From a virus, in IMG/VR virus record IMGVR_UViG_3300044825_000512, positions 1 through 60,271 of that record: a DNA stretch of 60,271 nt. One strand, given 5' to 3'. The translations under genes and the position numbers were made by a program. Under the pieces are notes generated by a model. The model made no database searches, was not told the DNA's origin, and worked only from the letters and a program-made list of their open reading frames with translations. The first letter of the stretch is position 1. The number at the start of each line of letters is the position of its first letter. Below, one piece after another: positions 4,222 through 38,549 of the stretch.

Positions 4222-4788
4222 CTACTTATTCCTTGATGTCGCAACCTTCTTCTTGGATTGTTCTAAAAACATAAATGGCGCAGATGTATAGGCGTCATAC
4301 TTCGAAGCAATCTTGAGAGCCTCTTCAACAGTTGCTCCTTGAGCGAGCGCTCCAATCGCATAACTAGAACCCGAGCCAACGCCATAGAATCCTTTTGAAT
4401 CAAGAGCGATAGACATATCATCGGCGAGTTCAAAGACGGTGCCACCGATAGCGATAAGAAAAGCGAATTTAGTTTCGCCATCATCATCGGCTTCATTCCA
4501 CTTGTATTCGTTATCCTTGAAACATTGTTTCAAAGATGGAACAACTCGAGCAATCATGAAATGGTACAAATCATCTAATTCAGCATTGCTTGGTTTTGGT
4601 GGCATCCAAATGTGTTGAGCAATATCGCAAGGCGCACATTCGCCACTTCCAGCAATTATGAATTCCCCGCGCTTTGAAATCTTGACCATCTGCGGATGAT
4701 TAGCAACACGACCACTTCCAGCCGTCACTTGAGAATCAGCACCGAATAAAACCTTGTCCCGATACTGGACGGCTACGATTGTGGTCAT
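4222..4788 (-). CDS. Proteasome beta-subunit / HslV-like Ntn-hydrolase peptidase
   Basis: 188 aa. N-terminus MTTIVAV (Thr nucleophile after Met removal, as in HslV MTTIVSV), GADSQVT, conserved Lys in MVKISKRG, and YGVGSGSSYAIGAL. Confidence 0.8.
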   Translation of the reverse strand: MTTIVAVQYRDKVLFGADSQVTAGSGRVANHPQMVKISKRGEFIIAGSGECAPCDIAQHIWMPPKPSNAELDDLYHFMIARVVPSLKQCFKDNEYKWNEADDDGETKFAFLIAIGGTVFELADDMSIALDSKGFYGVGSGSSYAIGALAQGATVEEALKIASKYDAYTSAPFMFLEQSKKKVATSRNK

Positions 4789-8340: not shown

Positions 8341-8434
8341 TAATACCAATCAGGATTAGGCTCGAAACCCGTGTCAAATCGTGGCGTGTCGGGTCGGAGT
8401 TGAGCGGGGCTGACTCAATTTTTGGAATCTTTCC

Positions 8435-8454
8435 AAACCCCCGTTTGGTATAAT
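8435..8454 (+). promoter_or_regulatory. Conserved promoter motif, rightward member of a divergent pair
   Basis: AAACCCCCGTTTGGTATAAT, with a TGgTATAAT extended -10 at 8446..8454. The GGGAGG SD and the ATG at 8475 follow. Confidence 0.7.
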
Positions 8455-8474
8455 GGGTCTGAAAGGGAGGAAAT

Positions 8475-9041
8475 ATGCCAAAGGTCAAAGACCAAGCAGG
8501 TCGGCTTTACGCCGCCGAAGAACTATCGGGCATCAAGTACGGCGAAGCCCTCACACTCAAAGAGTGTCAGAAATTCGTAGATAAGATTATTGCTCGAAAA
8601 TATGTAATCGATAAATACGGCATACAGGCACAGCGCCCGATTCTCGTTCTCGATGGTCGAGGTCGCCGAAAGGCTTGCGCTACTTTCTATTATGGAAAGC
8701 GAGCAATCAAATTACCGAAATGGGCTAGAGGAAAATATGTGATTCTTCATGAGGTCGCTCATCATCTGACAGACCTCAACGGACACAGAGCAGAGTTCGC
8801 ATCCTGTCTACTCGATTTAGTTCGACACTTCCTCGGACAAGAATCTGCCGATGCGCTTCAAGGTGCCTACCACCTCAAAGGTGTCAAGGTCATTGGAAAG
8901 AATGGAGCAGTCAAAGCCCGATGCCCACAATCAAGAAAAGATTGGGTAGCGCAGAAAAAAGAATCCGAGAGAATCAGGAAACAATTACAAGCAGTTGAGT
9001 CTTATCCTGATTTAGATAAATTAGTTGGGAGAAGCGCGTAG
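8475..9041 (+). CDS. HExxH zinc metallopeptidase (SprT-like / actinobacterial TIGR04338-like)
   Basis: 188 aa. AIKLPKWARGKYVILHEVAHHL carries the HExxH motif in the context I recall for the TIGR04338 family. Confidence 0.7.
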   Translation: MPKVKDQAGRLYAAEELSGIKYGEALTLKECQKFVDKIIARKYVIDKYGIQAQRPILVLDGRGRRKACATFYYGKRAIKLPKWARGKYVILHEVAHHLTDLNGHRAEFASCLLDLVRHFLGQESADALQGAYHLKGVKVIGKNGAVKARCPQSRKDWVAQKKESERIRKQLQAVESYPDLDKLVGRSA

Positions 9042-9055
9042 GTTAGACTTGGAGA

Positions 9056-9352
9056 GTGAAAAAACTCCAAGATATTTTGACTCGCATGGTTGCCGTCTTT
9101 ACAGTCGGCGCACTCGGCACCCTCGGTGCTGGTGCGGTCATGGGAGTTGAAACATGGGTCGCCTTATCGATGGCTGGATTGCTGGCAGTCGCATCCGTGG
9201 CAGAACGATTGGCTCGAGAATATCTCGATGATGGAAAACTAACTCTTGATGAAATCAATGGAGCGTTCAGTCCATTCGCAAAATCAGAAGAGGCTAGTCC
9301 TCTTTCTTCTCCCGACGAAGAGGATAAGTCAAAGCCCAAACGCCGAGCGTAG
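9056..9352 (+). CDS. Putative membrane protein
   Basis: 98 aa with two hydrophobic segments (VAVFTVGALGTLGAGAVMGV, WVALSMAGLLAVASV). The start (GTG at 9056) has poor SD spacing. The tail overlaps the convergent gene 9294..9467. Confidence 0.45.
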   Translation: MKKLQDILTRMVAVFTVGALGTLGAGAVMGVETWVALSMAGLLAVASVAERLAREYLDDGKLTLDEINGAFSPFAKSEEASPLSSPDEEDKSKPKRRA

Positions 9353-9467
9353 CCAAAATCGCGTAGCCGACAATTCCTTTCGCAGTTCCATCTAAAACAA
9401 TCCAAGCAACGAACATTCCAAGTAATGTCCAAAGTTGCCCAATCATGTCATTGATAAAGTTCTTCAC
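9294..9467 (-). CDS. Small two-TM membrane protein coupled to the secreted lectin protein
   Basis: Hand-translated: GTG overlapping the TAG of 9467..11650 (TAGTG), with AGGAGA 5 nt upstream. Product is ...MIGQLWTLLGMFVAWIVLDGTAKGIVGYAILATLGVWALTYPLRREKKED. Confidence 0.55.
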   Translation of the reverse strand: MKNFINDMIGQLWTLLGMFVAWIVLDGTAKGIVGYAILATLGVWALTYPLRREKKED

Positions 9468-11650
9468 TAAGGTCTCCTATATCCAGCACCGCCGATAGCG
9501 ACGGAAGCCATTGTAGTTGTTGCGATATTGCCAACGATTGTCGCGGCAATAATTGTTTTCGTTGCTTCTTCTCTTTCTTCAGGTGACATATCGGCACCGA
9601 GATTTCCAAGAGCAAAAATAAGTTGAGCAGGTGATTCGAATATCGCGCTGATAATTTCTGCTGGTGATGCGAGAAGTTCTAAAGCATCGGCAATCTCAGC
9701 GGTGATGATGACAGGGTTTCCATCTTCATCGGTTCGAACATCAACAGGGGTCTCGGCTGGAAGGTCGGCGAAATCAAGACCCGCTTCAATGAGTGCCGAG
9801 GCTGGCACCGCTTCCGCATCCGCGAATTGAGCAACAATCGCAGTCGCAATTATCTCGCGCTCCTCATCGTCGAGTTTTCCATCCGCTTTCGCAGATTCAA
9901 CAACAGAGGCAACTTCATCGGCTGTGACAGTTCCATCTTGTAAGATATCTTTTATTATTTCAGAGGGAGATTCTTCAGATGTCGGTTGTGGTTCAGGTGT
10001 TTGATTTGTCGGGTCAGTTTCCGTTGGGCTTTCAGAGGGTTGAGGCTCAGGTTCTTGAGAAGGCTCAGGAGTTGGCGTTGGCTCAGGGTCGGGAGAAGGT
10101 GACTCTTCAGGACTTGGACTTGGCTCAGGTTCAGGGGACGGAGTGGGAGTGGGTTCAGGTTCAGGACTTGGTTCAGGAGAAGGCTCAGGTGAAGGTTCAG
10201 GAGTTGGCTCGGGAGTCGGCTCTACCGAAGGGCTATCGCTTGGACTCGGAGCAGGGGTTGGTTCGGGACTTTGAATCGGCTCAGGTGACTGAGATGGAGT
10301 TGGGGTAGGCGATGGCGAAGGTGTGGGTTCAGTTGTGGACGGCTCAGGTTGCGGGGTCGGTTCAGGTTGAGGAATCGGAGTTGGCGAAGGTTGAGGGCTT
10401 GGCGAAGGTGAAGCCGTTGGTTCCGATGTTGGTTGAGGTTCAGGAGAAGGAGTGGAAGTTGGTTCCGACGGTGTTGGTGAAGGAGTCACCGTTGGTTCAG
10501 GTGTCGGGGTTGGTGTCGGAGTCGGCGACGGCTCAGGAGTTGGCTCGGGCTGAGGAGTTACTTGAGGTGTTGGAGCCGTGGAAGGACTAGCATCACCATA
10601 TTCAAGAATTACTTGAAGTCGCTTTACGATTCCACCGCAAGGGTCACCGAAGATTGCGTTGCTTGCTTGAATGACCGCATTATTTTGACCAAGGAAAATC
10701 TCGGAAACTTTTTGGATTGAACTTACAGCATGACATTGAGCATTGATTACAAAGTTCTCAGGTAATCCGTAACTAGCAAAAAATACATTGGTAAAAACTT
10801 TTCCAATCGGCGCAACAAGATTCAAAGATTCATTTTCGTTTGCCGTACCATTCACACTATTCGAAGGAGGTTGTGATGAATTGGACGGATTGGTTGTTGC
10901 TGTTGGGCTTTCTGATGGGGTGGGCTGTGGGCTTGATTCAGGGGTCGGCGAACTTGAAGGCGCGGGTTCAGTTGGCGATTGAGATGGAGTCGGCTCGGGT
11001 GATGGAGAGGATGAATCTGTTGGAGTCGGAGTTGCGGTGGACGAAGGCGACGGTGAAGGCTCGGGACTTGGACTTGGAGAGGGTTCGGGAGAAACAGTCG
11101 GAGTGGGCGAAGGAGAAGATTCAGGAGTTGGTGTCGGAGAAGCAATCACAGTCGGAGTATCAGATGTCGGAGACGCAGAAGGCTCAGGCGTTGGCGAAGG
11201 GGTGGGGGTGGGTGTTGGGGCAGGAGCAGGAGAACTCACCGAAACAGTAAAGACTGGTCCGTACCATCCAGCCCAAAAACCATTATCGATTCCCGATACA
11301 GAAATTGTTACTTGACCCGAAGCAACAGCGCTCACGCTGGTCTGCTCAATCGCATTGCCACTAAAACTTTGACCATTGATTGAAACGCTCCAGTTATCAG
11401 CAATCGGAGTACAACTACCAATACAGTTGGCGATAGTGTTATTGATTGCCACCGTTACAGTCGAGCCGTCGCTCACGGTTTTCACATAGGAAGCGCTACC
11501 GCCTCGGTAATCGAATTGAATCGAATCTCCCGAGACATTGCCATTGACCACGGATTCCCAAGACCCGCTGGCGCTCGCCGAATCGGACATGGGTAGGAGC
11601 GTCCACCCAAAGGCTAGGACGCAAACGGTCAAAACACGAAAAAGACGCAA
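9467..11650 (-). CDS. Secreted/cell-surface protein: signal peptide, beta-rich domain, PT/PS/PE linkers, SUEL-type (rhamnose/galactose) lectin domain, C-terminal hydrophobic anchor
   Basis: 727 aa with a TTG start. Signal peptide RLFRVLTVCVLAFGWTLLPMSDSASA. Lectin signature FASYG...C...SNAIFGDPCGGIVKRLQVILEY. C-terminus IIAATIVGNIATTTMASVAIGGAGYRRP. Confidence 0.85.
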   Translation of the reverse strand: MRLFRVLTVCVLAFGWTLLPMSDSASASGSWESVVNGNVSGDSIQFDYRGGSASYVKTVSDGSTVTVAINNTIANCIGSCTPIADNWSVSINGQSFSGNAIEQTSVSAVASGQVTISVSGIDNGFWAGWYGPVFTVSVSSPAPAPTPTPTPSPTPEPSASPTSDTPTVIASPTPTPESSPSPTPTVSPEPSPSPSPEPSPSPSSTATPTPTDSSSPSPEPTPSQSPTEPAPSSSPTPESSPQPTPSESPTATTNPSNSSQPPSNSVNGTANENESLNLVAPIGKVFTNVFFASYGLPENFVINAQCHAVSSIQKVSEIFLGQNNAVIQASNAIFGDPCGGIVKRLQVILEYGDASPSTAPTPQVTPQPEPTPEPSPTPTPTPTPEPTVTPSPTPSEPTSTPSPEPQPTSEPTASPSPSPQPSPTPIPQPEPTPQPEPSTTEPTPSPSPTPTPSQSPEPIQSPEPTPAPSPSDSPSVEPTPEPTPEPSPEPSPEPSPEPEPTPTPSPEPEPSPSPEESPSPDPEPTPTPEPSQEPEPQPSESPTETDPTNQTPEPQPTSEESPSEIIKDILQDGTVTADEVASVVESAKADGKLDDEEREIIATAIVAQFADAEAVPASALIEAGLDFADLPAETPVDVRTDEDGNPVIITAEIADALELLASPAEIISAIFESPAQLIFALGNLGADMSPEEREEATKTIIAATIVGNIATTTMASVAIGGAGYRRP
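9962..10594 (-). repeat. Pro/Thr/Ser/Glu-rich low-complexity coding repeat (linker 2)
   Basis: About 210 residues of (P-[TSE])n after the lectin domain. Degenerate 6-12 nt periodicity (ggttcagg/ggctcagg). Confidence 0.85.
10856..11233 (-). repeat. Pro/Thr/Ser-rich low-complexity coding repeat (linker 1)
   Basis: About 125 residues of PAPAPTPTPTPSPTPEPS... between the N-terminal domain and the lectin domain. Confidence 0.85.
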
Positions 11651-15314: not shown

Positions 15315-15698
15315 ATGGGTTTACCTGAGTTTGTTGATGTTGCTCCGTGCCGTTCTGCCGACCCTTGGTTATTCGACCAATATCAAATCGACTTAGCGCA
15401 ACCAGCACTTTCGTATTGTTCCCGATGTAAGTTTTGGCAAGAGTGTGACTCTCTAGTTCAGCCTAAGACTAATCATTACGATGGAATTGTTGCGGGAAAA
15501 GTTTGGAGAAATGGTCGCGTATTGGCTAAGTTAGATTCCTCTTCCCCCAATCGCCTAGTAGTCGGAGAGGAACCTGATGAAGATATTGATGCCATGGAAT
15601 TTCGAGGGAGCGAGTTGTTGGGGGATAGATACGGATTTCTTCTTCCCCGAGAACCATGGGATAACGGAGGAGAACCGAGTAGCCAAGAAGATTTGTAA
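15315..15698 (+). CDS. WhiB-like Fe-S transcription factor (divergent paralog with long tail)
   Basis: C12-x23-C36-x2-C39-x5-C45 (APCRS...YCSRCKFWQEC). The turn motif is degenerate (GIVAG). The 55-aa tail overlaps the next gene by 122 nt. Confidence 0.7.
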   Translation: MGLPEFVDVAPCRSADPWLFDQYQIDLAQPALSYCSRCKFWQECDSLVQPKTNHYDGIVAGKVWRNGRVLAKLDSSSPNRLVVGEEPDEDIDAMEFRGSELLGDRYGFLLPREPWDNGGEPSSQEDL

Positions 15699-18292: not shown

Positions 18293-19297
18293 ATGCCATT
18301 TCGTTTTGCGAAAGCGGAAAGACCTCGGCGGATTCCTCTAAGTCCTGAAGAGCAAGCCCTTGCCCGTACTCTTTATGAATCAATTCAAAGAGCAACAGAC
18401 AAAATATCAATGAAGCAACTGGAGCGCTTGCTCCGTAATCTTGACCCACAAACTTTAGAGCGCTTGGTAAGTGCTATCACTATTGCTAATCAGAAAAGAA
18501 TTCAAGAAGCATTATTAGCCTCGATTGATATTGGTGGCAATAAAGCGATTGAACAGATTCAAGATATTGCTCCTAAGTTAGCCCTTCCAGCCTTCACACC
18601 AAGTAAAGTAAAGATAACCAATAAAAAGCCTATGGCTAACATGGAGTTCACACAGGTTCCTATGTGGGCGCAATCTCGACGACCTAAAGTAGATTTCAAG
18701 ATGTCTTTCAATAAGACTAATCCAAACTCTTTAGCCTTTGCCGAGCGCCGTGCTGGAGAACTTGTAGTTGCTATTGATAACTTGAGTCGTATCGCAATTC
18801 GTCAAACAATTATTGATGCCTTCAATGAACAGTTAGATTACAGAGCAACAGCCAAGAGAATCAAGAATGTTGTGGGACTTCACCCTCAATGGGCTAAAGC
18901 AGTTACAAAATTTGAACGAGATGAATTCGCTCGTCTAGTTCGTAGCGGATTGAAAGAAGAGACCGCTCGCGCTCGCGCCATGGAACGAGCATCACGATAT
19001 TCAGATTCTCTCAAGAGTAAACGAGCCACCATGATTGCTCGTACAGAGATTCAAATTGCTCAGAATGAGGGACGCTATGAAGGATGGAAACAAGCGGCTG
19101 AAGAAGGATTCGTAGACCCTGAAGCACAAAAAATGTGGGTTACTGCTCCCGATGAAAGAACTTGCGATATATGCGCTCCGCTAGACGGAGAACTTGTTCC
19201 TTGGAATGGTTCATTCTCAATCGGACTTGAAGCGCCAATCGTTCACCCTAATTGCCGTTGTACCATGGTAATCATTCCACCCGAAAGACGCCGATGA
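18293..19297 (+). CDS. Head morphogenesis protein, SPP1 gp7 / Mu F-like (MuF)
   Basis: C-terminal signature MIARTEIQIAQNEG...DERTCDICAPLDGELV...HPNCRCT. Confidence 0.9.
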   Translation: MPFRFAKAERPRRIPLSPEEQALARTLYESIQRATDKISMKQLERLLRNLDPQTLERLVSAITIANQKRIQEALLASIDIGGNKAIEQIQDIAPKLALPAFTPSKVKITNKKPMANMEFTQVPMWAQSRRPKVDFKMSFNKTNPNSLAFAERRAGELVVAIDNLSRIAIRQTIIDAFNEQLDYRATAKRIKNVVGLHPQWAKAVTKFERDEFARLVRSGLKEETARARAMERASRYSDSLKSKRATMIARTEIQIAQNEGRYEGWKQAAEEGFVDPEAQKMWVTAPDERTCDICAPLDGELVPWNGSFSIGLEAPIVHPNCRCTMVIIPPERRR

Positions 19298-21117
19298 CAA
19301 CCACTATCAATCTTCCTATTGGCTATCGTCCAGTTCTAAAACATGGCGAGCATGACCAGTCAAGCCATGGCTCATGGGCGCACGGGGTTCAGGTAGAGCC
19401 TGAAGTGGTTCGCTCGGTTCTTGATAGGGTCAAAGAGAACGGTGGTCTCTCAGTAAGCCTCAAGGACGGCTCAGAGCCTACAAAAGGCTTCATGGTCGCT
19501 AAGGGCAAGAAGTACGCCGCAATCGTGAAGGCGGATGACTTCTTCGATGAAGCCAAGGGCGCAGAGATTCTTTCCTCATACATGAAACAGCATAAGGCTG
19601 ACCTAGCAACAGGGAAAAACTACCTCGGTTTATGGCACAATACCGAGGATGGACAGGTCTACCTTGATGTATCAGAAAACATCATGGATGAGGGAGAGGC
19701 TACTTCAAGAGGTCGTGAACGCGACCAAATTTCCATTTGGGATGTAGCAAACTTCAAGGAAGTACAGACAGGAGGAACAGGTGGCATCGAAAAAACTCGA
19801 GGCAGTCGAACTACCCGATATGTCAAACATGACAGACGAGCAGATAGACGCATACGCCAAAGAGATTTGGGCGAAACTCGCACAAGGCAAACAAGATTCG
19901 AAGTAATCTATTTTGACTTTGGGTTGAAACCCGTATTCAAACATGGGGAACATGACCAATCAGAGCATGGCAACTGGGCGCGTGGATTTACAGATAGCGA
20001 GCGCGAACTTATTGAACGCATGGATGGGGTTGGTCCTAGTCTTGAAGATTTAGATAATGTAATCAAAGATGATAGAGAAGTTTCAGACGACGAAATTCGT
20101 ATGATGGTTGATAATGACCGCGATATGTATGACATCATTCAAGGAATGGTTGATGACAAGATGGCTTATCATCAAGATGAAATTTCTAAAATGCCCGAAA
20201 ACGAACAAATTAGAGTTCGTGAACAAATGGAAGATATGGCTCGAGACCAATATATTTCTGAAAACTATGATGATTTAGCAGAGCGTGTTCGCCTTGAATC
20301 GGGAGATAGCGGAGCGGTGGATGCTTCCGAACTTACCCCTTATTTTGATGAAGTCTATTCAATAGAACATACTGGAACAAGTGCGAGCGGTGTCGAAGTA
20401 ACTCTCCGCAGTAGTGTTGAAGAAGTTTACAGAGACGGCGATGACATCATGGTTAGCGCTGGCGTTTACGATGAGGACAATAATCGAGTTGGTGAAGTTA
20501 GCCGAAGATTCTTCAAAGAAAATGGCACATGGAATGTTGAACACGCCTTACTTGCTTTAGAAAGTGATGATGTTCGAGGTACTGGCTTTGGCAAAGAATT
20601 CATTAGGCAATCTGAGGCTTGGTACACAGCAAAAGGCATGGGTTATATCGAAGTTGGTACAGCATGGGACGGCGCTCGCCATTGGGCTAGAGCGGGTTAT
20701 GATTTTGCGCCCGATAAGGTTGTAAGAAATCTCAGTACAATCGCAAACGAAGTAGCAATGAGTCCTGAATCCTATGGAGCAAACACACCAGCGGGTAAAG
20801 AATTTGATTCGATTATGTCTCGCGCTACAAACGATTATCGCCGAGATTCTGAAGGTAGACCAACTTGGTCTACGGTAAAAGATATGAAAGAAGATAACTT
20901 TCCTTTACCCGCCGAATTCGCCAACATTGGATATAAGAGTGGCGATACTGAATGGGCTGGAAAGAATTTGATGTATGGATTGAAAATGTATTATGTCAAG
21001 GCTCTTACCGCTGAAGGTCAAAAACTTCTTGAGGGTCCTATTGACCACGATGGGGATGGATTGATTTACGATGGAACAGCCCGTGAGAAACCAGCGCCTA
21101 GTGGCGGAAACAAATAA
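19294..21117 (+). CDS. Large head-module protein with two KHGEHDQS(S/E)HG motifs and a GNAT-like acetyltransferase-fold C-terminal domain
   Basis: ATGA-coupled start at 19294. Motifs at 19339..19380 and 19939..19980. GNAT motif A-like VRGTGFGKEF, then ...WARAGYDF. Confidence 0.75.
   Translation: MTTTINLPIGYRPVLKHGEHDQSSHGSWAHGVQVEPEVVRSVLDRVKENGGLSVSLKDGSEPTKGFMVAKGKKYAAIVKADDFFDEAKGAEILSSYMKQHKADLATGKNYLGLWHNTEDGQVYLDVSENIMDEGEATSRGRERDQISIWDVANFKEVQTGGTGGIEKTRGSRTTRYVKHDRRADRRIRQRDLGETRTRQTRFEVIYFDFGLKPVFKHGEHDQSEHGNWARGFTDSERELIERMDGVGPSLEDLDNVIKDDREVSDDEIRMMVDNDRDMYDIIQGMVDDKMAYHQDEISKMPENEQIRVREQMEDMARDQYISENYDDLAERVRLESGDSGAVDASELTPYFDEVYSIEHTGTSASGVEVTLRSSVEEVYRDGDDIMVSAGVYDEDNNRVGEVSRRFFKENGTWNVEHALLALESDDVRGTGFGKEFIRQSEAWYTAKGMGYIEVGTAWDGARHWARAGYDFAPDKVVRNLSTIANEVAMSPESYGANTPAGKEFDSIMSRATNDYRRDSEGRPTWSTVKDMKEDNFPLPAEFANIGYKSGDTEWAGKNLMYGLKMYYVKALTAEGQKLLEGPIDHDGDGLIYDGTAREKPAPSGGNK
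19781..19906 (+). CDS. Embedded +1-frame ORF with strong SD (overlapping gene, or sign of a frameshift in 19294..21117)
   Basis: AGGAGG-aacag-GTG. 41 aa, ASKKLEAVELPDMSNMTDEQIDAYAKEIWAKLAQGKQDSK. The co-linear zero frame is unusually Arg-rich. Confidence 0.3.
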   Translation: MASKKLEAVELPDMSNMTDEQIDAYAKEIWAKLAQGKQDSK

Positions 21118-21124
21118 ACTGCGG

Positions 21125-21130
21125 TATAAT
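21125..21130 (+). promoter_or_regulatory. -10 box (cGGTATAAT) 6 nt before a start codon: leaderless-type promoter
   Basis: TATAAT-tagatt-ATG(21137) with no SD. Confidence 0.45.
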
Positions 21131-21136
21131 TAGATT

Positions 21137-21301
21137 ATGACAAGTAGACGAGAGAAGATAAAAGCCATCCAAGAGGCTTATGCCAAATGGGAAGAGGGCG
21201 TTACTTTCACCTCTAATACTGGCGCGGGCGACGAAGATGAATCTAAAATTATGAGTGAAATACAAACCATCCTTCAAGGAAATAAACCGCAGTCAGAATA
21301 A
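21137..21301 (+). CDS. Small hypothetical protein, possibly leaderless (below ORF-track cutoff)
   Basis: 54 aa, MTSRREKIKAIQEAYAKWEEGVTFTSNTGAGDEDESKIMSEIQTILQGNKPQSE. Confidence 0.45.
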   Translation: MTSRREKIKAIQEAYAKWEEGVTFTSNTGAGDEDESKIMSEIQTILQGNKPQSE

Positions 21302-21320
21302 CATCCGCTATCCTTAGAAC

Positions 21321-22955
21321 ATGGCGGATATTGCTCCTAAACTGATTCACCTAAGCGCTGAGAAACTCAATGCGCTACATGAGCGTGTCCATAAGTCGGA
21401 AGCAACCCCCGCGATTATCGAGGTTCACCACACAATTCTCAATGAGATGGCTCGTCGCAAGATGGAGCGCCCTCAAGATGATTGGGATAAGTACGAGATT
21501 CTTGTTGATTCAATCGACAATGTAGACCTAACCACCCTTGGCGGATTACCAGCCGAAACAGTTCTTGAAGTCATCAAGGCGACAGGTGATACCGCTGGCA
21601 ATATCAAAACCTTCCTGACCGTCAATGGTTATCAGATGCGAGTAGAACCCGTTGAAAAGCGAATCCAACAAGAAGATGGAAAATGGATTGTTTACAACGA
21701 AGAGGGAACAAGAAGTTTTGGAAGTTACGATTCCAAAGAAGAGGCTGAAGAACGGCTTCGTCAGATTCATGCGTTTTCAAAAGCCGACGATACTTACACT
21801 CCACCAAAGGCAGTACGCGCCGCGGCGCAACGAGCGATTGAATGGATTGATAACGGTCTTGCTGGAGATGGATTTACTTCCGTCGGTAGAACAAGAGCGG
21901 GTCAATTAGCCCGTGGTGAAAACATCAGTATCGAAACTCTCAAGCGAATGAAATCATTCTTCTCTCGTCACGCAGTTGATGATAAAGCGGTTGGATTCAA
22001 TCGCGGAGAAAAAGGATTCCCTAGCGCTGGTCGAGTTGCGTGGGATGCTTGGGGTGGAGATGCTGGATTCGCATGGGCTGAATCAATGGTTGAGCGATAT
22101 GAGAATCGAGTAGAAAAACATGGAGACCATGACCAATCCTCACACGGAGCGTGGGCTGGCGGAAATGCTGGTGGAGAAGATGGTGGCTCATCTCGCCCCC
22201 GTATGGCAGATGATGTCAAGCCAAGTTCAGAGCGAAGCGCAGATGCCGTCAAACAAGCAGAGCGACTAAGAAGAGACGCAGAGGCAGTAGAACCCGCAGT
22301 CACTTCTTTGATGGAAGGTATTGCTAAAACTATCGGTGCTGATTTCGCAGTTCTCGATGGCAAGAGTTCTCTTGAACAAAGATTGAAGTCCACAGATTCA
22401 CTTGCTCGCAAGATTGATGCCGATGCTGAAAAAGACCATGGCGGAGATAGAGAGAAAGCGGCGAACGCAATCTCCGATGCTGTTCGATACACACTCAATG
22501 TTGATGAAGCCGATTACACAGATGGCGTAGAAAAAACTGTTGATGCTTTGGAAGCAACAGGTTGGAAAGTTGAATCAGTCAAAAACTTTTGGCAAGCGGG
22601 TGACCCTTACGATGGCACCAATATCAAACTTAGCAAAGACGGCGTGAAGGTTGAACTACAACTTCACACTCCACAATCTCACCGAGTCAAAGAGGTTGAT
22701 TTACACACAGATTATGAGACCTATCGTAAATCGACTGATAATGCTGAACGCAAGCAGATTTGGGACAGAATGGTTGAGAAGGCTAAGGCGATTCCACGCC
22801 CTGCCAATATGGGCAAACTTATGACCCTTGGAACCCTCGTAGTCCAAACCTACGAGACGGCTCAACAGGCTGGATTGACTAAATCAACTGGGGTTGATAT
22901 TCTATGGTCAATAACGAGAGGAGGTATAGCCGTATGCGGTATTTCGCAAAACTAG
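21321..22955 (+). CDS. Large head-module protein with KHGDHDQSSHG motif and C-terminal RelA/SpoT-like (small alarmone synthetase / toxSAS-like) nucleotidyltransferase domain
   Basis: 544 aa. Ordered RSH synthetase motifs: RLKSTDSLARKI, ISDAVRYTL, DPYDGTNIKL, VELQLHTPQS and HTDYETYR. The peptide motif is at 22116..22157. Confidence 0.8.
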   Translation: MADIAPKLIHLSAEKLNALHERVHKSEATPAIIEVHHTILNEMARRKMERPQDDWDKYEILVDSIDNVDLTTLGGLPAETVLEVIKATGDTAGNIKTFLTVNGYQMRVEPVEKRIQQEDGKWIVYNEEGTRSFGSYDSKEEAEERLRQIHAFSKADDTYTPPKAVRAAAQRAIEWIDNGLAGDGFTSVGRTRAGQLARGENISIETLKRMKSFFSRHAVDDKAVGFNRGEKGFPSAGRVAWDAWGGDAGFAWAESMVERYENRVEKHGDHDQSSHGAWAGGNAGGEDGGSSRPRMADDVKPSSERSADAVKQAERLRRDAEAVEPAVTSLMEGIAKTIGADFAVLDGKSSLEQRLKSTDSLARKIDADAEKDHGGDREKAANAISDAVRYTLNVDEADYTDGVEKTVDALEATGWKVESVKNFWQAGDPYDGTNIKLSKDGVKVELQLHTPQSHRVKEVDLHTDYETYRKSTDNAERKQIWDRMVEKAKAIPRPANMGKLMTLGTLVVQTYETAQQAGLTKSTGVDILWSITRGGIAVCGISQN

Positions 22956-23665
22956 GGGCTAACAATGAGGCGATAAACATTTATCGCTTTGAGGTTGGCG
23001 ACACAGAGATGGTCGAGGACAGATGGGATTTACGCAGTAGTTCTTGGGTCAATAATCCTGATGCCGATGTTGTTCGTTACCTAACGCAAGGCGAAGGTGA
23101 TTTCCAAGAGTTAGCCGAAGAGGTTGCTCGTCAGATTTTTCCTCAAGCCTTCACCGAAGAAGCAACAAAGGCTCTAGGTAAGTTTGATTTACAGAAAGCC
23201 GAAGGGGAAAAGCGTTACACCCTTGGAGCCATGTACATCCCTGATATGGAAGATGCTCATGGAGAGTGGACGGATTCCGATGAATTACAAAGAGCAGTTT
23301 GGGATTATGTAAGAAGCAATGACCGCCGTATTCGTTTACAGCACAACAAAGAAGTAGTCGCTGGCGAATGGGTTGAAGTCATGGCATTTCCATATTCACT
23401 TACAGTTCCAATCAAGACTCCCGAAGGAGAAGAGTTTCAACATACCTATCCACCGAACACGGTGTTCTTAGGTGTCATTTGGGAACCTTGGGCATGGAAC
23501 ATGGTTCAAGAAGGAAAGATTCGTGGGTATTCAATCGGTGGAAAAGCCGAGCGTTTATTTGTCGATATTGATTTAGAGAAAAACGACCCAACGGTGTCGG
23601 ATGTACATATTGATACAATTATGTCCCCGTCGAAAAAGAAGCCAAAAAAGGACGAAACTGTATGA
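22934..23665 (+). CDS. XkdF-like prohead protease
   Basis: GAGAGGAGG SD before the ATG at 22934. KRYTLGAMYIPDMEDAHGEWTD...RIRLQHN...IRGYSIGG matches my recollection of the PBSX XkdF family. Confidence 0.7.
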   Translation: MRYFAKLGANNEAINIYRFEVGDTEMVEDRWDLRSSSWVNNPDADVVRYLTQGEGDFQELAEEVARQIFPQAFTEEATKALGKFDLQKAEGEKRYTLGAMYIPDMEDAHGEWTDSDELQRAVWDYVRSNDRRIRLQHNKEVVAGEWVEVMAFPYSLTVPIKTPEGEEFQHTYPPNTVFLGVIWEPWAWNMVQEGKIRGYSIGGKAERLFVDIDLEKNDPTVSDVHIDTIMSPSKKKPKKDETV

Positions 23666-24096
23666 AAAAAGACTTGAGAATGTTAGGCGAACTCCGCAAG
23701 GGTCCACTAGCAGGTATGGACGAAGATGAATTCAAGATGATTGAAGCAGATGTCCGCAAGTTTGGTTTCAAGGGTTTGAGCGGTTACGCAAAGTCGATGG
23801 TTCAAGAGGCTATGCGCCGTTTGGGTAATACAATCAACAAAGCAGTAGAACAAAAATTAGAAGATTTCAATAAGACAATTTCTGTCGGCGATAAAGTTTC
23901 TTGGAGCGCATCAGGCGGTAAGGCTGAAGGTAAAGTTCTTCGCATCGAGCGCTCAGGTCGAATCAATGTTCCTGATTCATCATTCAACATTCAAGGTACC
24001 GAGGATGACCCTGCGGTGCTAATCGCTTTGTATCGTGACGGTAAGCCAACCGATACAAAGGTTGGACACAAGATGTCCACACTAAAAAAAAAGTAG
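23662..24096 (+). CDS. DUF2945/Tudor-like domain protein (zero-frame product)
   Basis: 144 aa. GDKVSWSASGGKAEGKVLRIE...EDDPAVLIALYRDGKPTDTKVGHKMSTL resembles the hypervirulence-associated Tudor domain. Confidence 0.75.
   Translation: MKKDLRMLGELRKGPLAGMDEDEFKMIEADVRKFGFKGLSGYAKSMVQEAMRRLGNTINKAVEQKLEDFNKTISVGDKVSWSASGGKAEGKVLRIERSGRINVPDSSFNIQGTEDDPAVLIALYRDGKPTDTKVGHKMSTLKKK
24087..24093 (+). promoter_or_regulatory. Candidate -1 programmed ribosomal frameshift heptamer A_AAA_AAG
   Basis: In-frame X_XXY_YYZ slippery site within a 9-A run, one codon before the TAG. The -1 frame is open for 72 more codons and has no start codon of its own. Confidence 0.55.
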
Positions 24097-24311
24097 TTCT
24101 TGAGAAGCACGGTGACCACGACCAATCTAGTCACGGTCACGGCAACGGTGGAGATGATTCTGAAGGTGAAGATTCATCAGAGCCAAAAAATCTAAAACCA
24201 AAGTTTGTACCTTACGATGATGACTCCGAAGGTGAGTTTGAAGATTTAGATTACGATGACCCTAAGTACATGGACACCATGGACTACGCTAGACCCAAGA
24301 AAAAGGGGTAA
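24093..24311 (+). CDS. -1 frame extension of 23662..24096 carrying the fourth KHGDHDQSSHG motif
   Basis: Reads VVLEKHGDHDQSSHGHGNGGDDSEGEDSSEPKNLKPKFVPYDDDSEGEFEDLDYDDPKYMDTMDYARPKKKG. There is no ATG/GTG/TTG in frame between the upstream stop (24042) and 24093. Confidence 0.55.
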   Translation, partial: VVLEKHGDHDQSSHGHGNGGDDSEGEDSSEPKNLKPKFVPYDDDSEGEFEDLDYDDPKYMDTMDYARPKKKG

Positions 24312-24313
24312 AG

Positions 24314-24580
24314 ATGTCAAGCATTATTGATGACACAATCGCAATACTCTCATCAATGAATCTTGTCGCCAAGAAAGTCTCAACCCCGCCTGGGTATGCT
24401 GGACTTCAAGTTGATTTACCTCATGATGCCCAAGCCTTTTTTATTTGGACAAAAATCGACAAAGATGATTTCCACTTTAGAATGGCTCGTTTTTGGGAGA
24501 ACGAAAACCCCTTCTCAATGTGGGTTTCTCCTAATCTAATTGAAGCCCTAGCCAAGACTCGAGTTTTGACCAATCAGTAA
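24314..24580 (+). CDS. Hypothetical protein
   Basis: 88-aa ORF with AAGGGG before the ATG. Confidence 0.65.
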   Translation: MSSIIDDTIAILSSMNLVAKKVSTPPGYAGLQVDLPHDAQAFFIWTKIDKDDFHFRMARFWENENPFSMWVSPNLIEALAKTRVLTNQ

Positions 24581-37107: not shown

Positions 37108-37366
37108 TTTCTTCAAAGATTTAGATGCGTTAGTTGGCGCTGGACGCGAACAAGGTGGATGTTCAATAGGTATTTTAGTTTCTAAATTAGATGAACCACT
37201 TCGTTCAAAACTTACTCAAATTATGAAGAATGAAAAAGTAAACTCGGCTCGACTTACTGAGGTTATGTTAGCCTATGGGCTTCAAGTATCTTCCAGCGAT
37301 GTCATGAGAAGGCATCGGCGAAGGCTCCTAGGTAAAGATGGGTGTAAGTGTCCGCGTGAATCTTGA
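36980..37366 (+). CDS. Helix-turn-helix-like protein; only the part after about 37100 looks genuine
   Basis: The natural-looking sequence INQDDFFKDLDALVGAGREQGGCSIGILVSKL...ARLTEVMLAYGLQVSSSDVMRRHRRR begins exactly where the Zn-ribbon ORF stops. There is no start codon there. Confidence 0.45.
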   Translation: MAESQSQMSSSDAGNVTGSSSKARRARGVSDAQDVSPKINQDDFFKDLDALVGAGREQGGCSIGILVSKLDEPLRSKLTQIMKNEKVNSARLTEVMLAYGLQVSSSDVMRRHRRRLLGKDGCKCPRES

Positions 37367-38549
37367 TGATGCCTTAGATAATCTTCTCAAAACTTCTGAG
37401 ATGAATTCAGTTCAAAAAACTGAACCAAGACAAAGACAGGCTGAATGGTTGCCTGGGGTCACTTGGCAAGGAGAAGAAGGAACAGTTACAACTCAACCAA
37501 TGGAGGGCGATAACGCGCCTGATTGGTCAGGAGTTCTACGAATGTGGGGATTAGACCCCGAGCATTTCCAAGTAGTAGAACCAGTTCTTTTCAATGTGTG
37601 GGGCGATACTTTAGGTATTCTCAATCGCCAATGGAAGGGCAAAGTAGTTCGCAAAGGCAAACAAGAAGTTGCTGATATTGAAGCCCTTATTCAAGAAATC
37701 AAAAAACATAAGCCACGCGAGCGCAAGCCAATTACGGGTGGGGCAAGCCTCGTTGTATGTGCTTCAGATTGGCAAACAGGTAAAAGAGATGGGGACGGTC
37801 TCAAAGGTTTAGTTGGACGATGGCTTCAGGCTATCGATGATGTTGAATTTAGAATCAAAGAATTGAAGAAGATAGGACGCCCGATTGATTCAATCACCGT
37901 CCTTTGCCTTGGCGATTTAGTTGAAGGATGCGACGGTCATTACGACATTCAAACTTTCACAGTCGAAGTTGATAGAAGAGACCAAGTAAAAATTGCTCGT
38001 CGTCTTTTGAGAGATGCTCTTATCCGTTGGTCAAAGGTAGTTCCTGAGATAACAGTTGCGGCGATTGGTGGAAACCACGGTGAAAACCGTAAGAACGGAA
38101 AAGCCTTTACTACTCTCAATGACAATGACGATGTTGCCCTAGTTGAATCAGTAGCAGAAATCTTTCAAGCCAATCCTGAAGCCTACGGTCATATCCGTTT
38201 TGCTATCCCAACCGATGAGTTGAGTTTGACCGTCGAAGTTCATGGAAAGATTATTGGAATCACTCACGGTCACCTTGCTCGCAGTTCAGGAAGTCCTGAA
38301 TCTAAACTTCGTCGCTGGATTGCTGACCAAACTCTCGGACGCCAAGCAATCGGAGATTGTGACATTTTGGTGACTGGTCATTATCATTCGTTTCGTCTAG
38401 CAGATTGGGGAGGAGTCAAATGGCTACAAGCACCAGCCCTCGACGGGGGAAGCGTGTGGTGGAGACAATCAACGGGGGAAATTGCGGATGTGGGTGTACT
38501 GACATTCCTAGTGTCGAGCGAGGGAGTCTCGGACATCCAACTCTTATGA
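37338..38549 (+). CDS. Calcineurin-like metallophosphoesterase (Mre11/SbcD-like)
   Basis: 403 aa with motifs in order: CLGDLVEG, IGGNHGEN, ITHGH and VTGHYH. Confidence 0.8.
   Translation: MGVSVRVNLDDALDNLLKTSEMNSVQKTEPRQRQAEWLPGVTWQGEEGTVTTQPMEGDNAPDWSGVLRMWGLDPEHFQVVEPVLFNVWGDTLGILNRQWKGKVVRKGKQEVADIEALIQEIKKHKPRERKPITGGASLVVCASDWQTGKRDGDGLKGLVGRWLQAIDDVEFRIKELKKIGRPIDSITVLCLGDLVEGCDGHYDIQTFTVEVDRRDQVKIARRLLRDALIRWSKVVPEITVAAIGGNHGENRKNGKAFTTLNDNDDVALVESVAEIFQANPEAYGHIRFAIPTDELSLTVEVHGKIIGITHGHLARSSGSPESKLRRWIADQTLGRQAIGDCDILVTGHYHSFRLADWGGVKWLQAPALDGGSVWWRQSTGEIADVGVLTFLVSSEGVSDIQLL

Follow-up and report, generated by a model that had tools for sequence, protein, structure and literature searches.

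Why does a gene of a phage head module end in an alarmone synthetase, and how could such an enzyme stay harmless in the cell that makes it? The question is raised by ORF 21321..22955 (+ strand) in a stretch of 60,271 nucleotides from the IMG/VR virus record IMGVR_UViG_3300044825_000512, which was analyzed as a whole and is called the window here. The ORF encodes 544 aa, and 3 public contigs carry a gene call for the identical protein. An earlier note, made from the letters alone, had recognized five synthetase motifs and described the C-terminal part of this head-module protein as a RelA/SpoT-type pyrophosphokinase domain. All five motifs are present in the order described, and the catalytic motifs are invariant across relatives. 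The C-terminal end is indeed a RelA/SpoT-homolog (RSH) synthetase domain; its location at 22278-22760 was right, and its extent had been drawn too small (Table 1).

With about 60.1 kb, the phage genome in the window is complete and either circular or circularly permuted. The phage probably infects an actinobacterium; by TerL, its closest cultured relatives are phages of Arthrobacter. No integrase was found among the scanned ORFs of the window. No prophage of this lineage was seen, and the junction motif described below is essentially absent from 185,579 reference genomes. A megablast search with nt 19000-24000 against 50,697 phage records returned no match.

Table 1 Features of the head module in the window (nt positions of the window; aa positions of the 544-aa protein unless a different gene is named).
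Feature	Position (nt)	Strand	Details
MuF (SPP1 gp7-like) minor head protein	18293..19297	+	Phage_Mu_F E=1.4e-15, aa 216-325 of MuF; phrog_3517 'head morphogenesis' E=7e-60
First cargo gene	19294..21117	+	607 aa; gene call in L001; ATG overlaps MuF stop codon
Junction motifs of the 607-aa cargo gene	19339-19371 and 19939-19971	+	motif scan
orf54	21137..21301	+	54 aa; upstream of the carrier-synthetase gene
N-terminal carrier	21321..22115	+	aa 1-265; phrog_2859 E=3e-243
Junction motif KHGDHDQSSHG	22116..22148	+	aa 266-276; between carrier and linker
RSH synthetase domain, Apk/EAS type	~22233..22820	+	aa ~305-500; phmmer, profile, AlphaFold, Foldseek, NCBIfam
Syn1 motif RLKSTDSLARKI	22380-22415	+	aa 354-365; R354, K356, S360, R363, K364
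Syn2 motif ISDAVRYTL	22470-22496	+	aa 384-392; D386, R389, Y390, T391
Syn3 motif DPYDGTNIKL	22602-22631	+	aa 428-437; Y430, G432, N434
Syn4 motif VELQLHTPQS	22650-22679	+	aa 444-453; E445, Q447, H449, T450
Syn5 motif HTDYETYR	22704-22727	+	aa 462-469; H462, Y465
C-terminal tail (...PRPANxxxLxxLGTLVxQTFETAQQAGLxKSTGVD...)	22821..22955	+	44 aa, conserved; overlaps protease gene start
Prohead protease, XkdF / Peptidase_S78_2 type	22934..23665	+	PF14550 E=2.8e-11; gene call in L001
Hva1_TUDOR head-module protein	23662..24096	+	144 aa; PF11160 E=1.7e-07
Slippery heptamer A_AAA_AAG	24087-24093	+	last codons of Tudor gene; TAG directly after
-1 frame Tudor extension	24093..24311	+	72 aa; acidic tail; reached only by slippage on the A9 run
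Fourth junction motif copy	24105-24137	+	in the -1 frame Tudor extension
orf88	24314..24580	+	88 aa; conserved head-module gene

The synthetase was compared with known enzymes at the sequence level. A phmmer search against PDB sequences matched it to 8VX3 (SaEAS, an alarmone synthetase) at E=3.2e-17, and a profile built from 50 family sequences matched the same entry at E=5.3e-36. Similarly, the NCBIfam XopAD effector family, with its Rel-like C-terminus, matched the synthetase at E=1.4e-24. The toxin domain of a S. pneumoniae prophage Apk2 was matched by tblastn at E=7e-26, with 34.5% identity over 197 aa. A check with the Pfam RelA_SpoT model PF04607 had been proposed, and it gave a weak match. 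The isolated domain aligned with profile positions 1-110 of 113 and scored 15.2-16.6 bits (E=0.01-0.03), below the gathering threshold of 27. A Pfam scan of the full-length 544-aa protein gave no RelA_SpoT match at E<=0.1, and precomputed PF04607 matches were present for none of 72 homologs. The clade is divergent and poorly captured by the model.

The active site was then compared residue by residue. The SaEAS active-site residues D121, R124, K154, N169, E182, and Q184 (PMC12691689) align with D386, R389, K421, N434, E445, and Q447 of the phage protein; K421 is a further key residue outside the five Syn motifs. The signature of adenosine pyrophosphokinases, RYT/GxN/xH (PMC12226406), was found as RYT in DAVRYT of Syn2, GxN in YDGTN of Syn3, and xH in ELQLHT of Syn4. 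The catalytic and ATP-binding columns are invariant in 50 homologs that share 26-87% identity. These alignments indicate that the full catalytic residue set is under purifying selection. The synthetase domain is real, and it is apparently an active enzyme, a predicted pyrophosphokinase. On sequence grounds it is placed in the Apk1/Apk2/EAS clade, whose members make small-nucleotide alarmones very fast. The sub-threshold PF04607 score might instead point to a catalytically dead structural remnant that serves as a head-internal protein only, and MuF proteins can indeed carry toxin-like domains without activity, such as the inactive PBECR domain of Mu gp30 (PMC5512222). However, a dead remnant would not be expected to keep every catalytic and ATP-binding residue through 50 divergent homologs in agreement with the SaEAS active site, and this reading is hardly credible.

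The structural comparison suggested by the earlier note was carried out with an AlphaFold model of the synthetase (pLDDT 91, pTM 0.83). The model and its Foldseek matches show the nucleotidyltransferase-type SYNTH fold, with an antiparallel central sheet and flanking helices. The best Foldseek match was SaEAS (TM 0.80, E=3e-12), and further matches were RelP, SpoT, RelSeq, CapRel, FaRel2, and RelA. A phage protein named 'Tas1' in BFVD was also among the fold matches. Apk1/Tas1 was not in the best 50 Foldseek matches, and it gave no PDB sequence match at E<=1. The domain had been called toxSAS-like. The assignment as an RSH synthetase is confirmed; membership in the CapRel, FaRel2, and PhRel families is not, as these are only distant fold matches. 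This bears on the possibility that the enzyme is a tRNA 3'-CCA pyrophosphokinase of the CapRel, FaRel2, or PhRel kind, which would stop translation and make no free alarmones. Such enzymes share the fold, CapRel and FaRel2 are among the Foldseek matches, and a passage in PMC12691689 cites a mycobacteriophage-encoded PhRel. However, CapRel and FaRel2 matched much more weakly than SaEAS (TM 0.3-0.4, E 1e-3 to 1e-1), the sequence searches returned SaEAS, Apk2, and XopAD-type relatives only, the RYT/GxN/xH signature is present, and no adjacent antitoxin was found. A tRNA target is thus considered improbable.

The remainder of the 544-aa protein consists of a carrier, a junction, a linker, and a tail. 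Within the carrier, aa 1-150 are clade-specific, and aa ~160-265 form a widespread phage head-module domain that has no Pfam family. This domain was found in 2052 database proteins at E<=1e-5, many of them with a fused Peptidase_S78, S78_2, or Hva1_TUDOR domain, and the tblastn matches of the carrier fall within prohead-protease and capsid genes of cultured phages. Pfam and PHROG searches with aa 1-300 detected no MuF. The carrier was modeled by AlphaFold with pLDDT 83 and pTM 0.45, and the model had no fold match in the PDB (best E=0.33), where the multi-domain arrangement may hamper a search with the whole model. The KHGDHDQSSHG peptide pointed out earlier is present directly after the carrier. 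It is followed by a flexible linker rich in Gly, Asp, and Ser, which extends to about nt 22232. The pLDDT drops on either side of the junction motif, and the motif lies in low-confidence linker regions. The C-terminal tail (pLDDT 53-78) is kept in most homologs and is missing from the protease-fused and GNAT-fused ones.

The gene order of the head module is portal, MuF, cargo gene, orf54, carrier-synthetase, protease, Tudor, orf88, a 267-aa coiled-coil protein, and capsid. The 267-aa protein is scaffold-like by composition only. Pfam places MuF and the prohead protease on the two sides of the carrier-synthetase gene, as had been proposed. The MuF gene is stand-alone, without a fused toxin domain, and lies two genes upstream. 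The protease gene follows immediately downstream, and its start overlaps the end of the carrier-synthetase gene. Dozens of IMG/VR loci have kept the MuF-to-orf88 stretch. The 607-aa cargo protein has a 15-aa leader, a junction motif, a domain of ~200 aa, a second junction motif, and a region of ~365 aa with a GNAT-like core; a DxDGDGxIxDGT motif stands at its C-terminus. Its GNAT signals are weak only, with NCBIfam AAC(6') at E=0.0012 (aa 356-425) and a PDB GNAT at E=0.43. The two cassettes of this protein recur in at least 36 and at least 49 IMG/VR loci.

Related loci were compared to see what the carrier is joined to. Two of them, L024 and L034, have the carrier at 77-81% identity, but a Zeta toxin (PF06414 E=5e-24) stands behind the motif in place of the synthetase. 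The carrier is thus polymorphic, with alternative C-terminal toxin domains among close relatives. Three further candidates for alternative C-termini (P0067, P0051, and P0062) were rejected as truncated or chimeric fragments. A ParB-like domain stands between the carrier and the motif-synthetase part in one locus (L070) and between the carrier and the protease in another (L026). In P0050, P0055, and L064, the prohead protease is fused to the synthetase via the motif. In P0069, the synthetase stands on a putatively MuF-like N-terminus, with a cysteine-rich MuF-like motif recognized by eye and a match to the Pfam family PF25310. Across loci, the identity of the synthetase tracks that of the protease (r=0.91), not that of the carrier (r=0.56), and we infer a recombination breakpoint at the carrier-synthetase junction.

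The short conserved junction peptide between the carrier and the linker is VEKHGDHDQSSHGAWAGG, and the full consensus of the motif is (P)VxKHG[DE]HDQS[ST]HG[NS]WAxG. Four copies were found in the window, and at least 362 copies in at least 123 IMG/VR loci. Head proteins (MuF, protease, Tudor, or carrier) stand on one side of the motif and enzymatic modules on the other; the modules that follow it are synthetase, ADP-ribosyltransferase, Zeta, GNAT, and zincin. Among the four copies in the window, only 24-31 of 42 nt are identical, and the differences include synonymous sites. This rules out a DNA-level repeat as their origin and indicates conservation at the peptide level. In the 185,579 reference genomes the motif gave 8 matches, 7 of which were out-of-frame artefacts in GC-rich DNA. 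A short-query tblastn search of cultured phages, which has limited sensitivity, gave no match. The motif is also missing from Arthrobacter phage Laroye, the nearest relative in culture that was examined, and a literature search on the motif string found no paper.

The fourth copy of the motif is placed behind the Tudor gene in a different reading frame. The -1 frame extension occupies a gap before ORF 24314 that would otherwise be non-coding. The A9 run, the stop codon, and the -1-frame motif are kept together in about 32 of 40 related loci, 24 of them with A9-G. In at least 4 loci, the same Tudor-motif fusion is in frame and needs no shift. A stimulatory RNA hairpin 3' of the slippery site was looked for, and none beyond the controls was found (-15.6 against -16.2 +/- 2.8 kcal/mol for shuffled sequences).

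No cognate antitoxin had been recognized in the earlier note, and none is recognizable now. The gene directly downstream of the synthetase is the prohead protease, not an immunity gene. IapK and Aph1 of Streptococcus phage IPP32 gave nothing by tblastn against the window (best E 0.5 and 0.1, respectively), and two Pfam sweeps of nearly all ORFs revealed no HD, Nudix, or MazG family. The small ORFs orf54 and orf88 had been offered as antitoxin candidates by position. Neither has a family match in Pfam, PHROG, or NCBIfam, a match to an antitoxin family, or any resemblance to IapK or Aph1. By tblastn, orf54 was found in at least 36 loci, 10 of which have no synthetase in the fetched stretch, including the Zeta-bearing L034; orf88 was found in at least 51 loci, including the Zeta-bearing L024 and L034. 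Both genes are therefore unlikely to be synthetase-specific immunity genes, because they are conserved where the carrier bears a Zeta toxin instead (both in L034, orf88 in L024).

Several known systems share parts of this design. Apk2 toxins, the closest relatives among phages and reportedly also treated by Bartoli and by Ahmad in 2023, are likewise head-module proteins with a C-terminal Apk-type synthetase; the identity and signature given above, a presumed packaging and delivery with the DNA, and a polymorphic system with a varying C-terminal toxin are common to both. These MuF-(p)ppApp synthetase toxins belong to temperate phages of S. pneumoniae SPNA45, M. haemolytica, P. multocida, and B. 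caccae (Paulet 2025, PMC12226406), and MuF toxins have been described as exclusive to temperate phages (PMC5576092). In Apk2, MuF is part of the same polypeptide, and iapK and aph1 follow immediately downstream. Here, in contrast, MuF is a separate gene and the carrier is a different one, neither immunity gene was found in the genome, and there is no sign of an integrase or a prophage state. The KHGxHDQ junction motif is absent from the Streptococcus Apk2 compared. The locus thus appears, from its sequence, to be an Apk2-related architecture without MuF fusion and without immunity genes, in which the toxin is attached via a short motif for swappable modules.

SaEAS (Ahmad et al. 2025, PMC12691689; PDB 8VX3) is closer than any other PDB entry, both in solved structure and in sequence. 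It shares all the cited active-site residues, has no immunity gene, and combines a synthetase with a delivery module. Its self-protection would come from the enzyme leaving the cytoplasm, and the same is proposed here. SaEAS is a Sec-secreted bacterial protein, whereas the protein here is a phage head protein, and the identity is only about 25-27%. SaEAS makes both alarmones, and VpEAS and AaEAS make only (p)ppGpp (PMC12691689); the products of the phage enzyme are predicted. The specificity of Apk2 was unchanged by motif swaps (PMC12226406), and the acceptor nucleotide is not readable from the sequence in the Apk/EAS clade (PMC12691689, PMC12226406). The EAS paper lists SPP1/MuF as the sole phage-type delivery domain (PMC12691689), whereas the putative delivery part here is the carrier, a head-module domain. 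Apk1/Tas1, a P. aeruginosa type VI effector, belongs to the same enzyme clade (PMC12691689) and is likewise a delivered toxin with a very high turnover, but its carrier is of the PAAR/T6SS kind, and it comes with a cognate immunity protein. The toxSAS enzymes (CapRel, FaRel, FaRel2, PhRel, and PhRel2) differ in having an adjacent or fused antitoxin. Polyvalent proteins and polymorphic toxins (Zhang 2012, PMC3482391; Iyer 2017, PMC5512222) are also head-associated multi-domain proteins, built as chains of RelA/SpoT, ADP-ribosyltransferase, ParB-like, zincin, and GNAT modules, and their injection with the DNA has been predicted. The modules here, in contrast, are spread over several genes, each behind one specific conserved peptide. 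In polymorphic toxin systems (Zhang 2012), an immunity gene lies directly downstream, in the position that the overlapping protease gene occupies here.

The best explanation of these data, to which we give a probability of roughly 60%, is a head-carried Apk-type synthetase that is packaged, processed by the protease, and ejected with the DNA into the next host. Capsid packaging and delivery with the DNA had been proposed in the earlier note, and the genomic context now speaks for them more strongly. The carrier-synthetase protein would be made late in infection, and the carrier would build it into the procapsid. The XkdF-type protease encoded next door, a candidate processing enzyme, would probably cut at or near the junction motif. 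The synthetase would then travel in the virion and enter the next host cell with the DNA. There, with ATP as the pyrophosphate donor, it would pyrophosphorylate the 3'-OH of ATP or ADP, possibly also of GTP or GDP, and the predicted product would be (p)ppApp, with or without (p)ppGpp. For characterized relatives, a turnover of about 100,000 molecules per minute is given in PMC12691689. With such a turnover, a few ejected molecules could quickly reset the nucleotide pools and shut host metabolism down. The biological role may be host takeover, anti-defense, or competition. Since no immunity gene is present, the enzyme would have to be harmless in the producing cell through a precursor form or capsid sequestration, and this control is speculative. 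A fast ATP-consuming enzyme made late without immunity could starve the ATP-dependent DNA packaging, which speaks against this explanation.

The synthetase could also be a late intracellular effector that is not packaged and that serves in shutdown of host metabolism, superinfection block, or lysis timing. In that case, late co-expression alone would account for its location in the head module. An immunity gene would be unnecessary if the producing cell is already doomed, and SaEAS-type enzymes likewise lack immunity genes (PMC12691689). However, the synthetase in this clade is always joined to head-assembly parts (carrier, prohead protease, MuF-like) and is never free-standing, the same peptide ties many unrelated toxin-type domains to head proteins, and ATP depletion while the DNA is being packaged would harm the phage. 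An unpackaged effector is therefore regarded as rather unlikely, and packaging in the head is preferred.

A wider role can be proposed tentatively for the junction motif. T4 internal proteins and Alt have a capsid targeting sequence that is cleaved by the prohead protease, and they are ejected into the host. They are a working analogy only, as there is no sequence relation, and targeting or cleavage at KHGxHDQ is hypothetical here. The motif might be a dedicated capsid-loading and/or prohead-protease cleavage tag of an immunity-free polymorphic effector delivery system in an abundant lineage of apparently virulent environmental phages, probably of actinobacteria. Each tagged module would be packed as an inactive precursor, which the protease would free for ejection into the next host, and the dose of one product would be set by a programmed -1 frameshift. 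Alternatively, the motif could serve as a tag for binding, as a metal site, or as nothing more than a linker, and we know of no cleavage specificity for XkdF-type proteases.

The ADP-ribosyltransferase modules fill the same motif-tagged slots as the synthetase, which suggests that the ADP-ribosyltransferase 'toxins' of freshwater phages share the same head-cargo system. For these toxins a 'Trojan horse' function has been proposed in print, and some of the phages are predicted actinophages (PMC6802176). By extension, all toxin modules of these freshwater phages, the synthetase included, could be directed at eukaryotic grazers. This is very improbable: the known targets of Apk/EAS and Zeta are bacterial cytoplasmic nucleotides, the architecture resembles that of the polyvalent and MuF toxins of phages, for which injection into bacteria is assumed (PMC5512222, PMC5576092), and the window showed no translocation (B) component.

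Phage alarmone synthetases have so far been known only as Apk2, that is, as MuF fusions of temperate phages with two immunity proteins, and the delivery route of Apk2 is still unproven. Here, the same enzyme class is found on a separate non-MuF carrier, without an immunity gene or a sign of lysogeny, and in a slot that can be swapped for Zeta. If the synthetase is packaged, this phage would offer a simple system for asking how a very fast ATP-consuming toxin stays silent during assembly, and what a lytic phage gains from injecting an alarmone synthetase. The junction peptide provides a concrete handle on the loading or processing of phage-head cargo, and it could serve practically for packaging foreign proteins into capsids. 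If the motif is indeed such a tag, the ADP-ribosyltransferases of freshwater phages would be reinterpreted as injected effectors directed at the host rather than as anti-grazer toxins.

The C-terminal part of the 544-aa head-module protein (coordinates of all window features are collected in the table) had been claimed in an earlier note to be a RelA/SpoT-type synthetase domain. This was verified by motifs, sequence match and predicted fold. Gene calls on three public contigs include an identical 544-aa protein. The five synthetase motifs are present in the claimed order at aa 354-365, 384-392, 428-437, 444-453 and 462-469, and the KHGDHDQSSHG peptide is present at aa 266-276. The profile search that the note had proposed (PF04607) stayed below threshold. 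Pfam reported no RelA_SpoT domain for the full-length protein, and the isolated domain reached 15-17 bits where 27 are required (E=0.01-0.03), in a match that spans nearly the entire profile. The single strong match among PDB sequences was 8VX3 ('SaSAS', E=3.2e-17), which is SaEAS, the exported alarmone synthetase (EAS) of Streptomyces albidoflavus (PMC12691689). A search among 5.8 billion proteins returned 72 homologs, all metagenomic and none (0/72) with a precomputed Pfam domain over the synthetase region; a profile built from 50 of them matched SaEAS at E=5.3e-36. The NCBIfam match was to the XopAD type III effector family, whose Rel-like C-terminus aligned with the domain at E=1.4e-24. 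An AlphaFold model based on the homolog alignment reached pLDDT 91 and pTM 0.83, and the proposed structure comparison via Foldseek placed SaEAS on top (TM 0.80, E=3e-12), followed by RelP, SpoT, RelSeq, CapRel, FaRel2 and RelA. The probability that the domain is an Apk/EAS-type synthetase is put at about 0.85.

K356, S360, R363, K364, D386, R389, T391, Y430, E445, Q447, H449 and T450 do not vary among the 50 homologs (26-87% identity); these columns correspond to the catalytic and ATP-binding residues. Those that the SaEAS authors name for their enzyme, D121, R124, K154, N169, E182 and Q184 (PMC12691689), pair with D386, R389, K421, N434, E445 and Q447 in a pairwise alignment. The synthetase is predicted to be catalytically competent, with an intact active site. 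The signature of adenosine 3'-pyrophosphokinases is RYT, GxN and xH in synthetase motifs Syn2, Syn3 and Syn4, and classical (p)ppGpp synthetases have AVR, SxH and IR there (PMC12226406). The window protein carries the former (DAVRYT, YDGTN, ELQLHT). The reaction product does not follow from this signature, because SaEAS bears it yet produces both alarmones (PMC12691689), motif swaps did not turn Apk2, a phage MuF-(p)ppApp synthetase toxin, into a (p)ppGpp synthetase (PMC12226406), and (p)ppGpp is the sole product of two other EAS enzymes from this clade (PMC12691689).

The core idea was already known, since predictions from 2012-2017 placed RelA/SpoT domains on MuF and polyvalent proteins of phages (PMC3482391, PMC5512222, PMC5576092) and phage domains of this type were characterised biochemically in 2023-2025. 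By tblastn, 59 cultured-phage records were matched. The best matches cover only aa 305-500 at ~34% identity and fall at the C-terminal end of proteins labelled 'head morphogenesis / minor head' in Streptococcus pneumoniae prophages; further matches are in Pasteurella, Mannheimia, Haemophilus and Aggregatibacter phages. These proteins are Apk2 toxins, which join an N-terminal MuF domain to a C-terminal (p)ppApp synthetase and have the immunity genes iapK and aph1 directly behind them (PMC12226406). Streptococcus phage IPP32 has a 527-aa MuF-synthetase gene, then a 69-aa ORF and an HD phosphohydrolase. The window differs from this layout. MuF is a gene of its own (Pfam E=1.4e-15), with one gene and one small ORF between it and the synthetase gene, and the N-terminal 265 aa of the synthetase protein are not MuF. 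Directly downstream, where Apk2 has iapK and aph1, an XkdF-type prohead protease gene overlaps the 3' end of the synthetase gene by ~22 nt, so the placement between MuF and prohead protease is as the note described. MuF toxins were reported to occur exclusively in temperate phages (PMC5576092), whereas the window lineage is apparently non-temperate; no integrase was found among the scanned window ORFs.

IapK and Aph1 queries found nothing in the window, and Pfam sweeps of nearly all window ORFs contained no HD-type hydrolase, in agreement with the earlier view that no cognate antitoxin is recognisable. The two small ORFs proposed as candidates by position, orf54 and orf88, are unlikely to be synthetase antitoxins. 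They have no family match, occur in 36 and 51 related loci, respectively, and are kept beside a Zeta-toxin carrier (both in locus L034, orf88 in L024), which is unexpected for a synthetase-specific immunity protein. They are conserved head-module genes.

The carrier, the N-terminal 265 aa, matches phrog_2859, whose function is not annotated. Its aa ~160-265 form a very common module (2052 proteins at E<=1e-5) without a Pfam family. Many of these proteins are fused to Peptidase_S78, S78_2 or Hva1_TUDOR, and in cultured phages the module lies inside genes with the annotation prohead protease, capsid maturation protease or major capsid protein. For aa 1-270, AlphaFold gave a confident model (pLDDT 83) that has no fold match in PDB. 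Dozens of loci keep the series MuF, cargo gene, orf54, carrier-synthetase, protease, Tudor, orf88; one locus, L060, matches the window at 98-100% identity. L024 and L034 have a Zeta toxin in place of the synthetase, behind the same carrier (77-81% identity) and motif. L070 has the carrier, a variant motif, a ParB-like domain, the motif and the synthetase, and in L026 carrier and ParB-like domain are fused straight into the protease. The synthetase is also found fused to prohead protease (homologs P0050 and P0055, locus L064), to GNAT (P0053), and to a MuF-like N-terminus in P0069, which has a cysteine-rich motif judged by eye and carries Pfam PF25310. Other toxins surround the same protease-adjacent slot in distant relatives, with a 1115-aa Zeta-toxin protein immediately upstream in L003 and a MuF-ADP-ribosyltransferase fusion nearby in L005. 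Across 33 loci, synthetase identity correlated with that of the downstream protease at r=0.91 and with that of its own carrier at r=0.56; several loci have ~69% identity in the carrier and 81-86% in the synthetase. The synthetase tracks the protease far more closely than the carrier, a sign of recombination in or close to the carrier-synthetase junction.

The four window copies of KHGDHDQSSHG share 24-31 of 42 nt and differ at synonymous sites, which argues for selection on the peptide. At least 119 IMG/VR stretches match a degenerate DNA pattern for KHG[DE]HDQxxHG, often with 2-5 copies per locus among the matches listed. Within 123 IMG/VR loci, 362 instances were found in 269 ORFs (1-8 per ORF), with the consensus (P)VxKHG[DE]HDQS[ST]HG[NS]WAxG. 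The ORFs were split at the motifs and the resulting segments were clustered. The parts before the motif are Peptidase_S78, XkdF protease, Tudor, MuF and the carrier. The modules after it are the synthetase (41-43 loci, C-terminal in every case), ADP-ribosyltransferase (PF03496), Zeta toxin (PF06414, E=5e-24), GNAT (PF00583), a weakly matched SprT-like zincin (E=0.0012) and several domains without family match. In AlphaFold models, confidence drops at the motif, which sits at the end of the carrier's last helix and ahead of the synthetase's first helix, and a Gly/Ser/Asp-rich stretch follows it. No paper on the motif string was found in a literature search, and a short-query tblastn of limited sensitivity gave no match to the motif in the cultured-phage collection. 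It is nearly absent from 185,579 reference genomes, where seven of the eight matches are out-of-frame artefacts. KHGDHDQSSHG is a junction element, and the synthetase is tethered by this flexible conserved junction to a head-module carrier within a polymorphic cargo system.

The gene after MuF probably encodes a second polymorphic cargo protein. It has two motif-led cassettes, one of ~200 aa without family and one of ~365 aa with weak GNAT-like signals (NCBIfam AAC(6') E=0.0012), and in related loci it bears ADP-ribosyltransferase, zincin or other cassettes. A second motif, DxDGDGx[ILVF]x[DEQ]GT, lies 10-15 residues before the C-terminus of this protein and of a 103-aa ORF that precedes the tail-tube genes. 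The motif is seen again in 50 related IMG/VR loci and may be a calcium-binding or targeting element.

The fourth junction-motif copy lies in the -1 frame, just past the stop of the Tudor gene (Hva1_TUDOR), which ends in ...CTA AAA AAA AAG TAG. A_AAA_AAG, a classic slippery heptamer, is located within this A9 run, directly 5' of the TAG. A -1 shift would append 72 aa (VVLEKHGDHDQSSHGHGNGG...) with the motif and an acidic tail; this extension would occupy a 217-nt gap that is otherwise empty, stopping at nt 24311, three bases short of orf88. The A9 run, the stop codon and the -1-frame motif are kept in ~32 of 40 related IMG/VR loci, with A9 followed by G in 24 of them and by T in the remainder. 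A programmed -1 frameshift at A_AAA_AAG is probable from this sequence pattern; the extension could equally well arise by slippage during transcription of the A9 run. No hairpin stands out downstream of the slippery site. At least four loci have the same Tudor fusion in a single frame, so no shift is required there.

The identical 127-nt ends, with TerL running across their junction, show that the window covers an entire genome of ~60.1 kb, either circular or circularly permuted; TerL is missing from the ORF lists because its ORF runs over the window end. The portal-terminase distance is ~16 kb, and the GC content is ~45%. TerL shares 52-53% identity with its counterparts in Arthrobacter phages such as Laroye and 47.5% with that of a Microbacterium phage. 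This kinship and the weak WhiB-like ORF suggest that the host is probably an actinobacterium. Laroye (NC_041947), the nearest cultured relative as judged by TerL, also has enzyme genes in its head module and lacks the KHGxHDQ motif. Its genes at 8382-9503 and 10728-11357 (locus L126) are annotated 'RNA ligase' and 'RNAse', and the C-terminal part of the 'RNA ligase' family phrog_14859 matches the window XkdF-type protease.

Several other window features were observed. The deacetylase-family gene, which seems unusual for a phage, sits among minus-strand genes and adjoins the proteasome-like ORF. The 727-aa protein has a SUEL/rhamnose-binding lectin-like segment (E=2.3e-6, sub-threshold), and its gene lies in a region, at 10-12 kb, where GC content (0.507) and GC skew (0.25) deviate locally. 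The metallophosphoesterase-like ORF is located between the tail-terminator and tail-tube genes. A tandem duplication appears to have produced the two tail-tube-like genes; Pfam Phage_tail_2 matches the second, and the first is tube-like only by similarity to the second.

Coordinates of features in the window
Feature	Position (nt)	Strand	Remark
Identical ends	1-127, 60145-60271		
Proteasome-subunit-like ORF, 188 aa, weak	4222-4788	-	Pfam Proteasome E=2.7e-4, sub-threshold
Histone-deacetylase / acetylpolyamine-amidohydrolase family	4805-5728	-	Pfam Hist_deacetyl E=2.7e-54
727-aa protein	9467-11650	-	extremely Pro/Thr/Ser/Glu-rich
WhiB-like ORF, weak	15315-15698	+	E=0.018
MuF	18293-19297		
Cargo gene after MuF	19294-21117	+	ATG overlaps MuF stop
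Junction motif, four copies	19339-19371, 19939-19971, 22116-22148, 24105-24137	+	
DxDGDG motif	21043-21078, 40369-40404	+	
orf54	21137-21301		
Carrier-synthetase	21321-22955	+	
Tudor gene	23662-24096	+	
A_AAA_AAG	24087-24093		
orf88	24314-24580		
403-aa ORF	37338-38549	+	GNHGEN, GHYH calcineurin-like metallophosphoesterase motifs; Metallophos_2 E=0.011, weak
103-aa ORF	40123-40434		
Tail-tube-like genes, adjacent	40434-41165, 41174-41590	+	both begin MPTFRHGK
TerL	58686 across window end		spans junction of ends

In the proposed mechanism, the carrier-synthetase protein would be expressed late and built into the procapsid, and the protease would cut it near the motif. The synthetase would then be carried in the virion and ejected into the next host, where it would rapidly convert ATP into (p)ppApp, alone or together with (p)ppGpp. 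Packaging in the virion is considered somewhat likely, and cleavage at the motif is a more tentative step. Characterised members of the clade reach ~100,000 turnovers per minute (PMC12691689), so a few molecules per virion could matter. The lack of immunity genes fits a producing cell that is already lost, and it would also fit control by a precursor form or by sequestration; SaEAS-type enzymes escape self-poisoning through export (PMC12691689).

The new elements are the non-MuF carrier with a separate MuF gene, the absence of immunity genes, the environmental and apparently non-temperate lineage, the conserved junction peptide, and the swapping of cassettes with Zeta, ADP-ribosyltransferase and GNAT modules. 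The ADP-ribosyltransferase genes of freshwater phages have been read as anti-grazer 'Trojan horse' toxins (PMC6802176), and no mention of RelA/SpoT was found in that work. ADP-ribosyltransferase cassettes (e.g. in loci L104, L085 and L005) share motif-tagged head-cargo slots with the synthetase. A head-cargo system with such modules is more probably aimed at the bacterial host, and the shared slots suggest that the ADP-ribosyltransferases of freshwater phages are injected effectors against the host.
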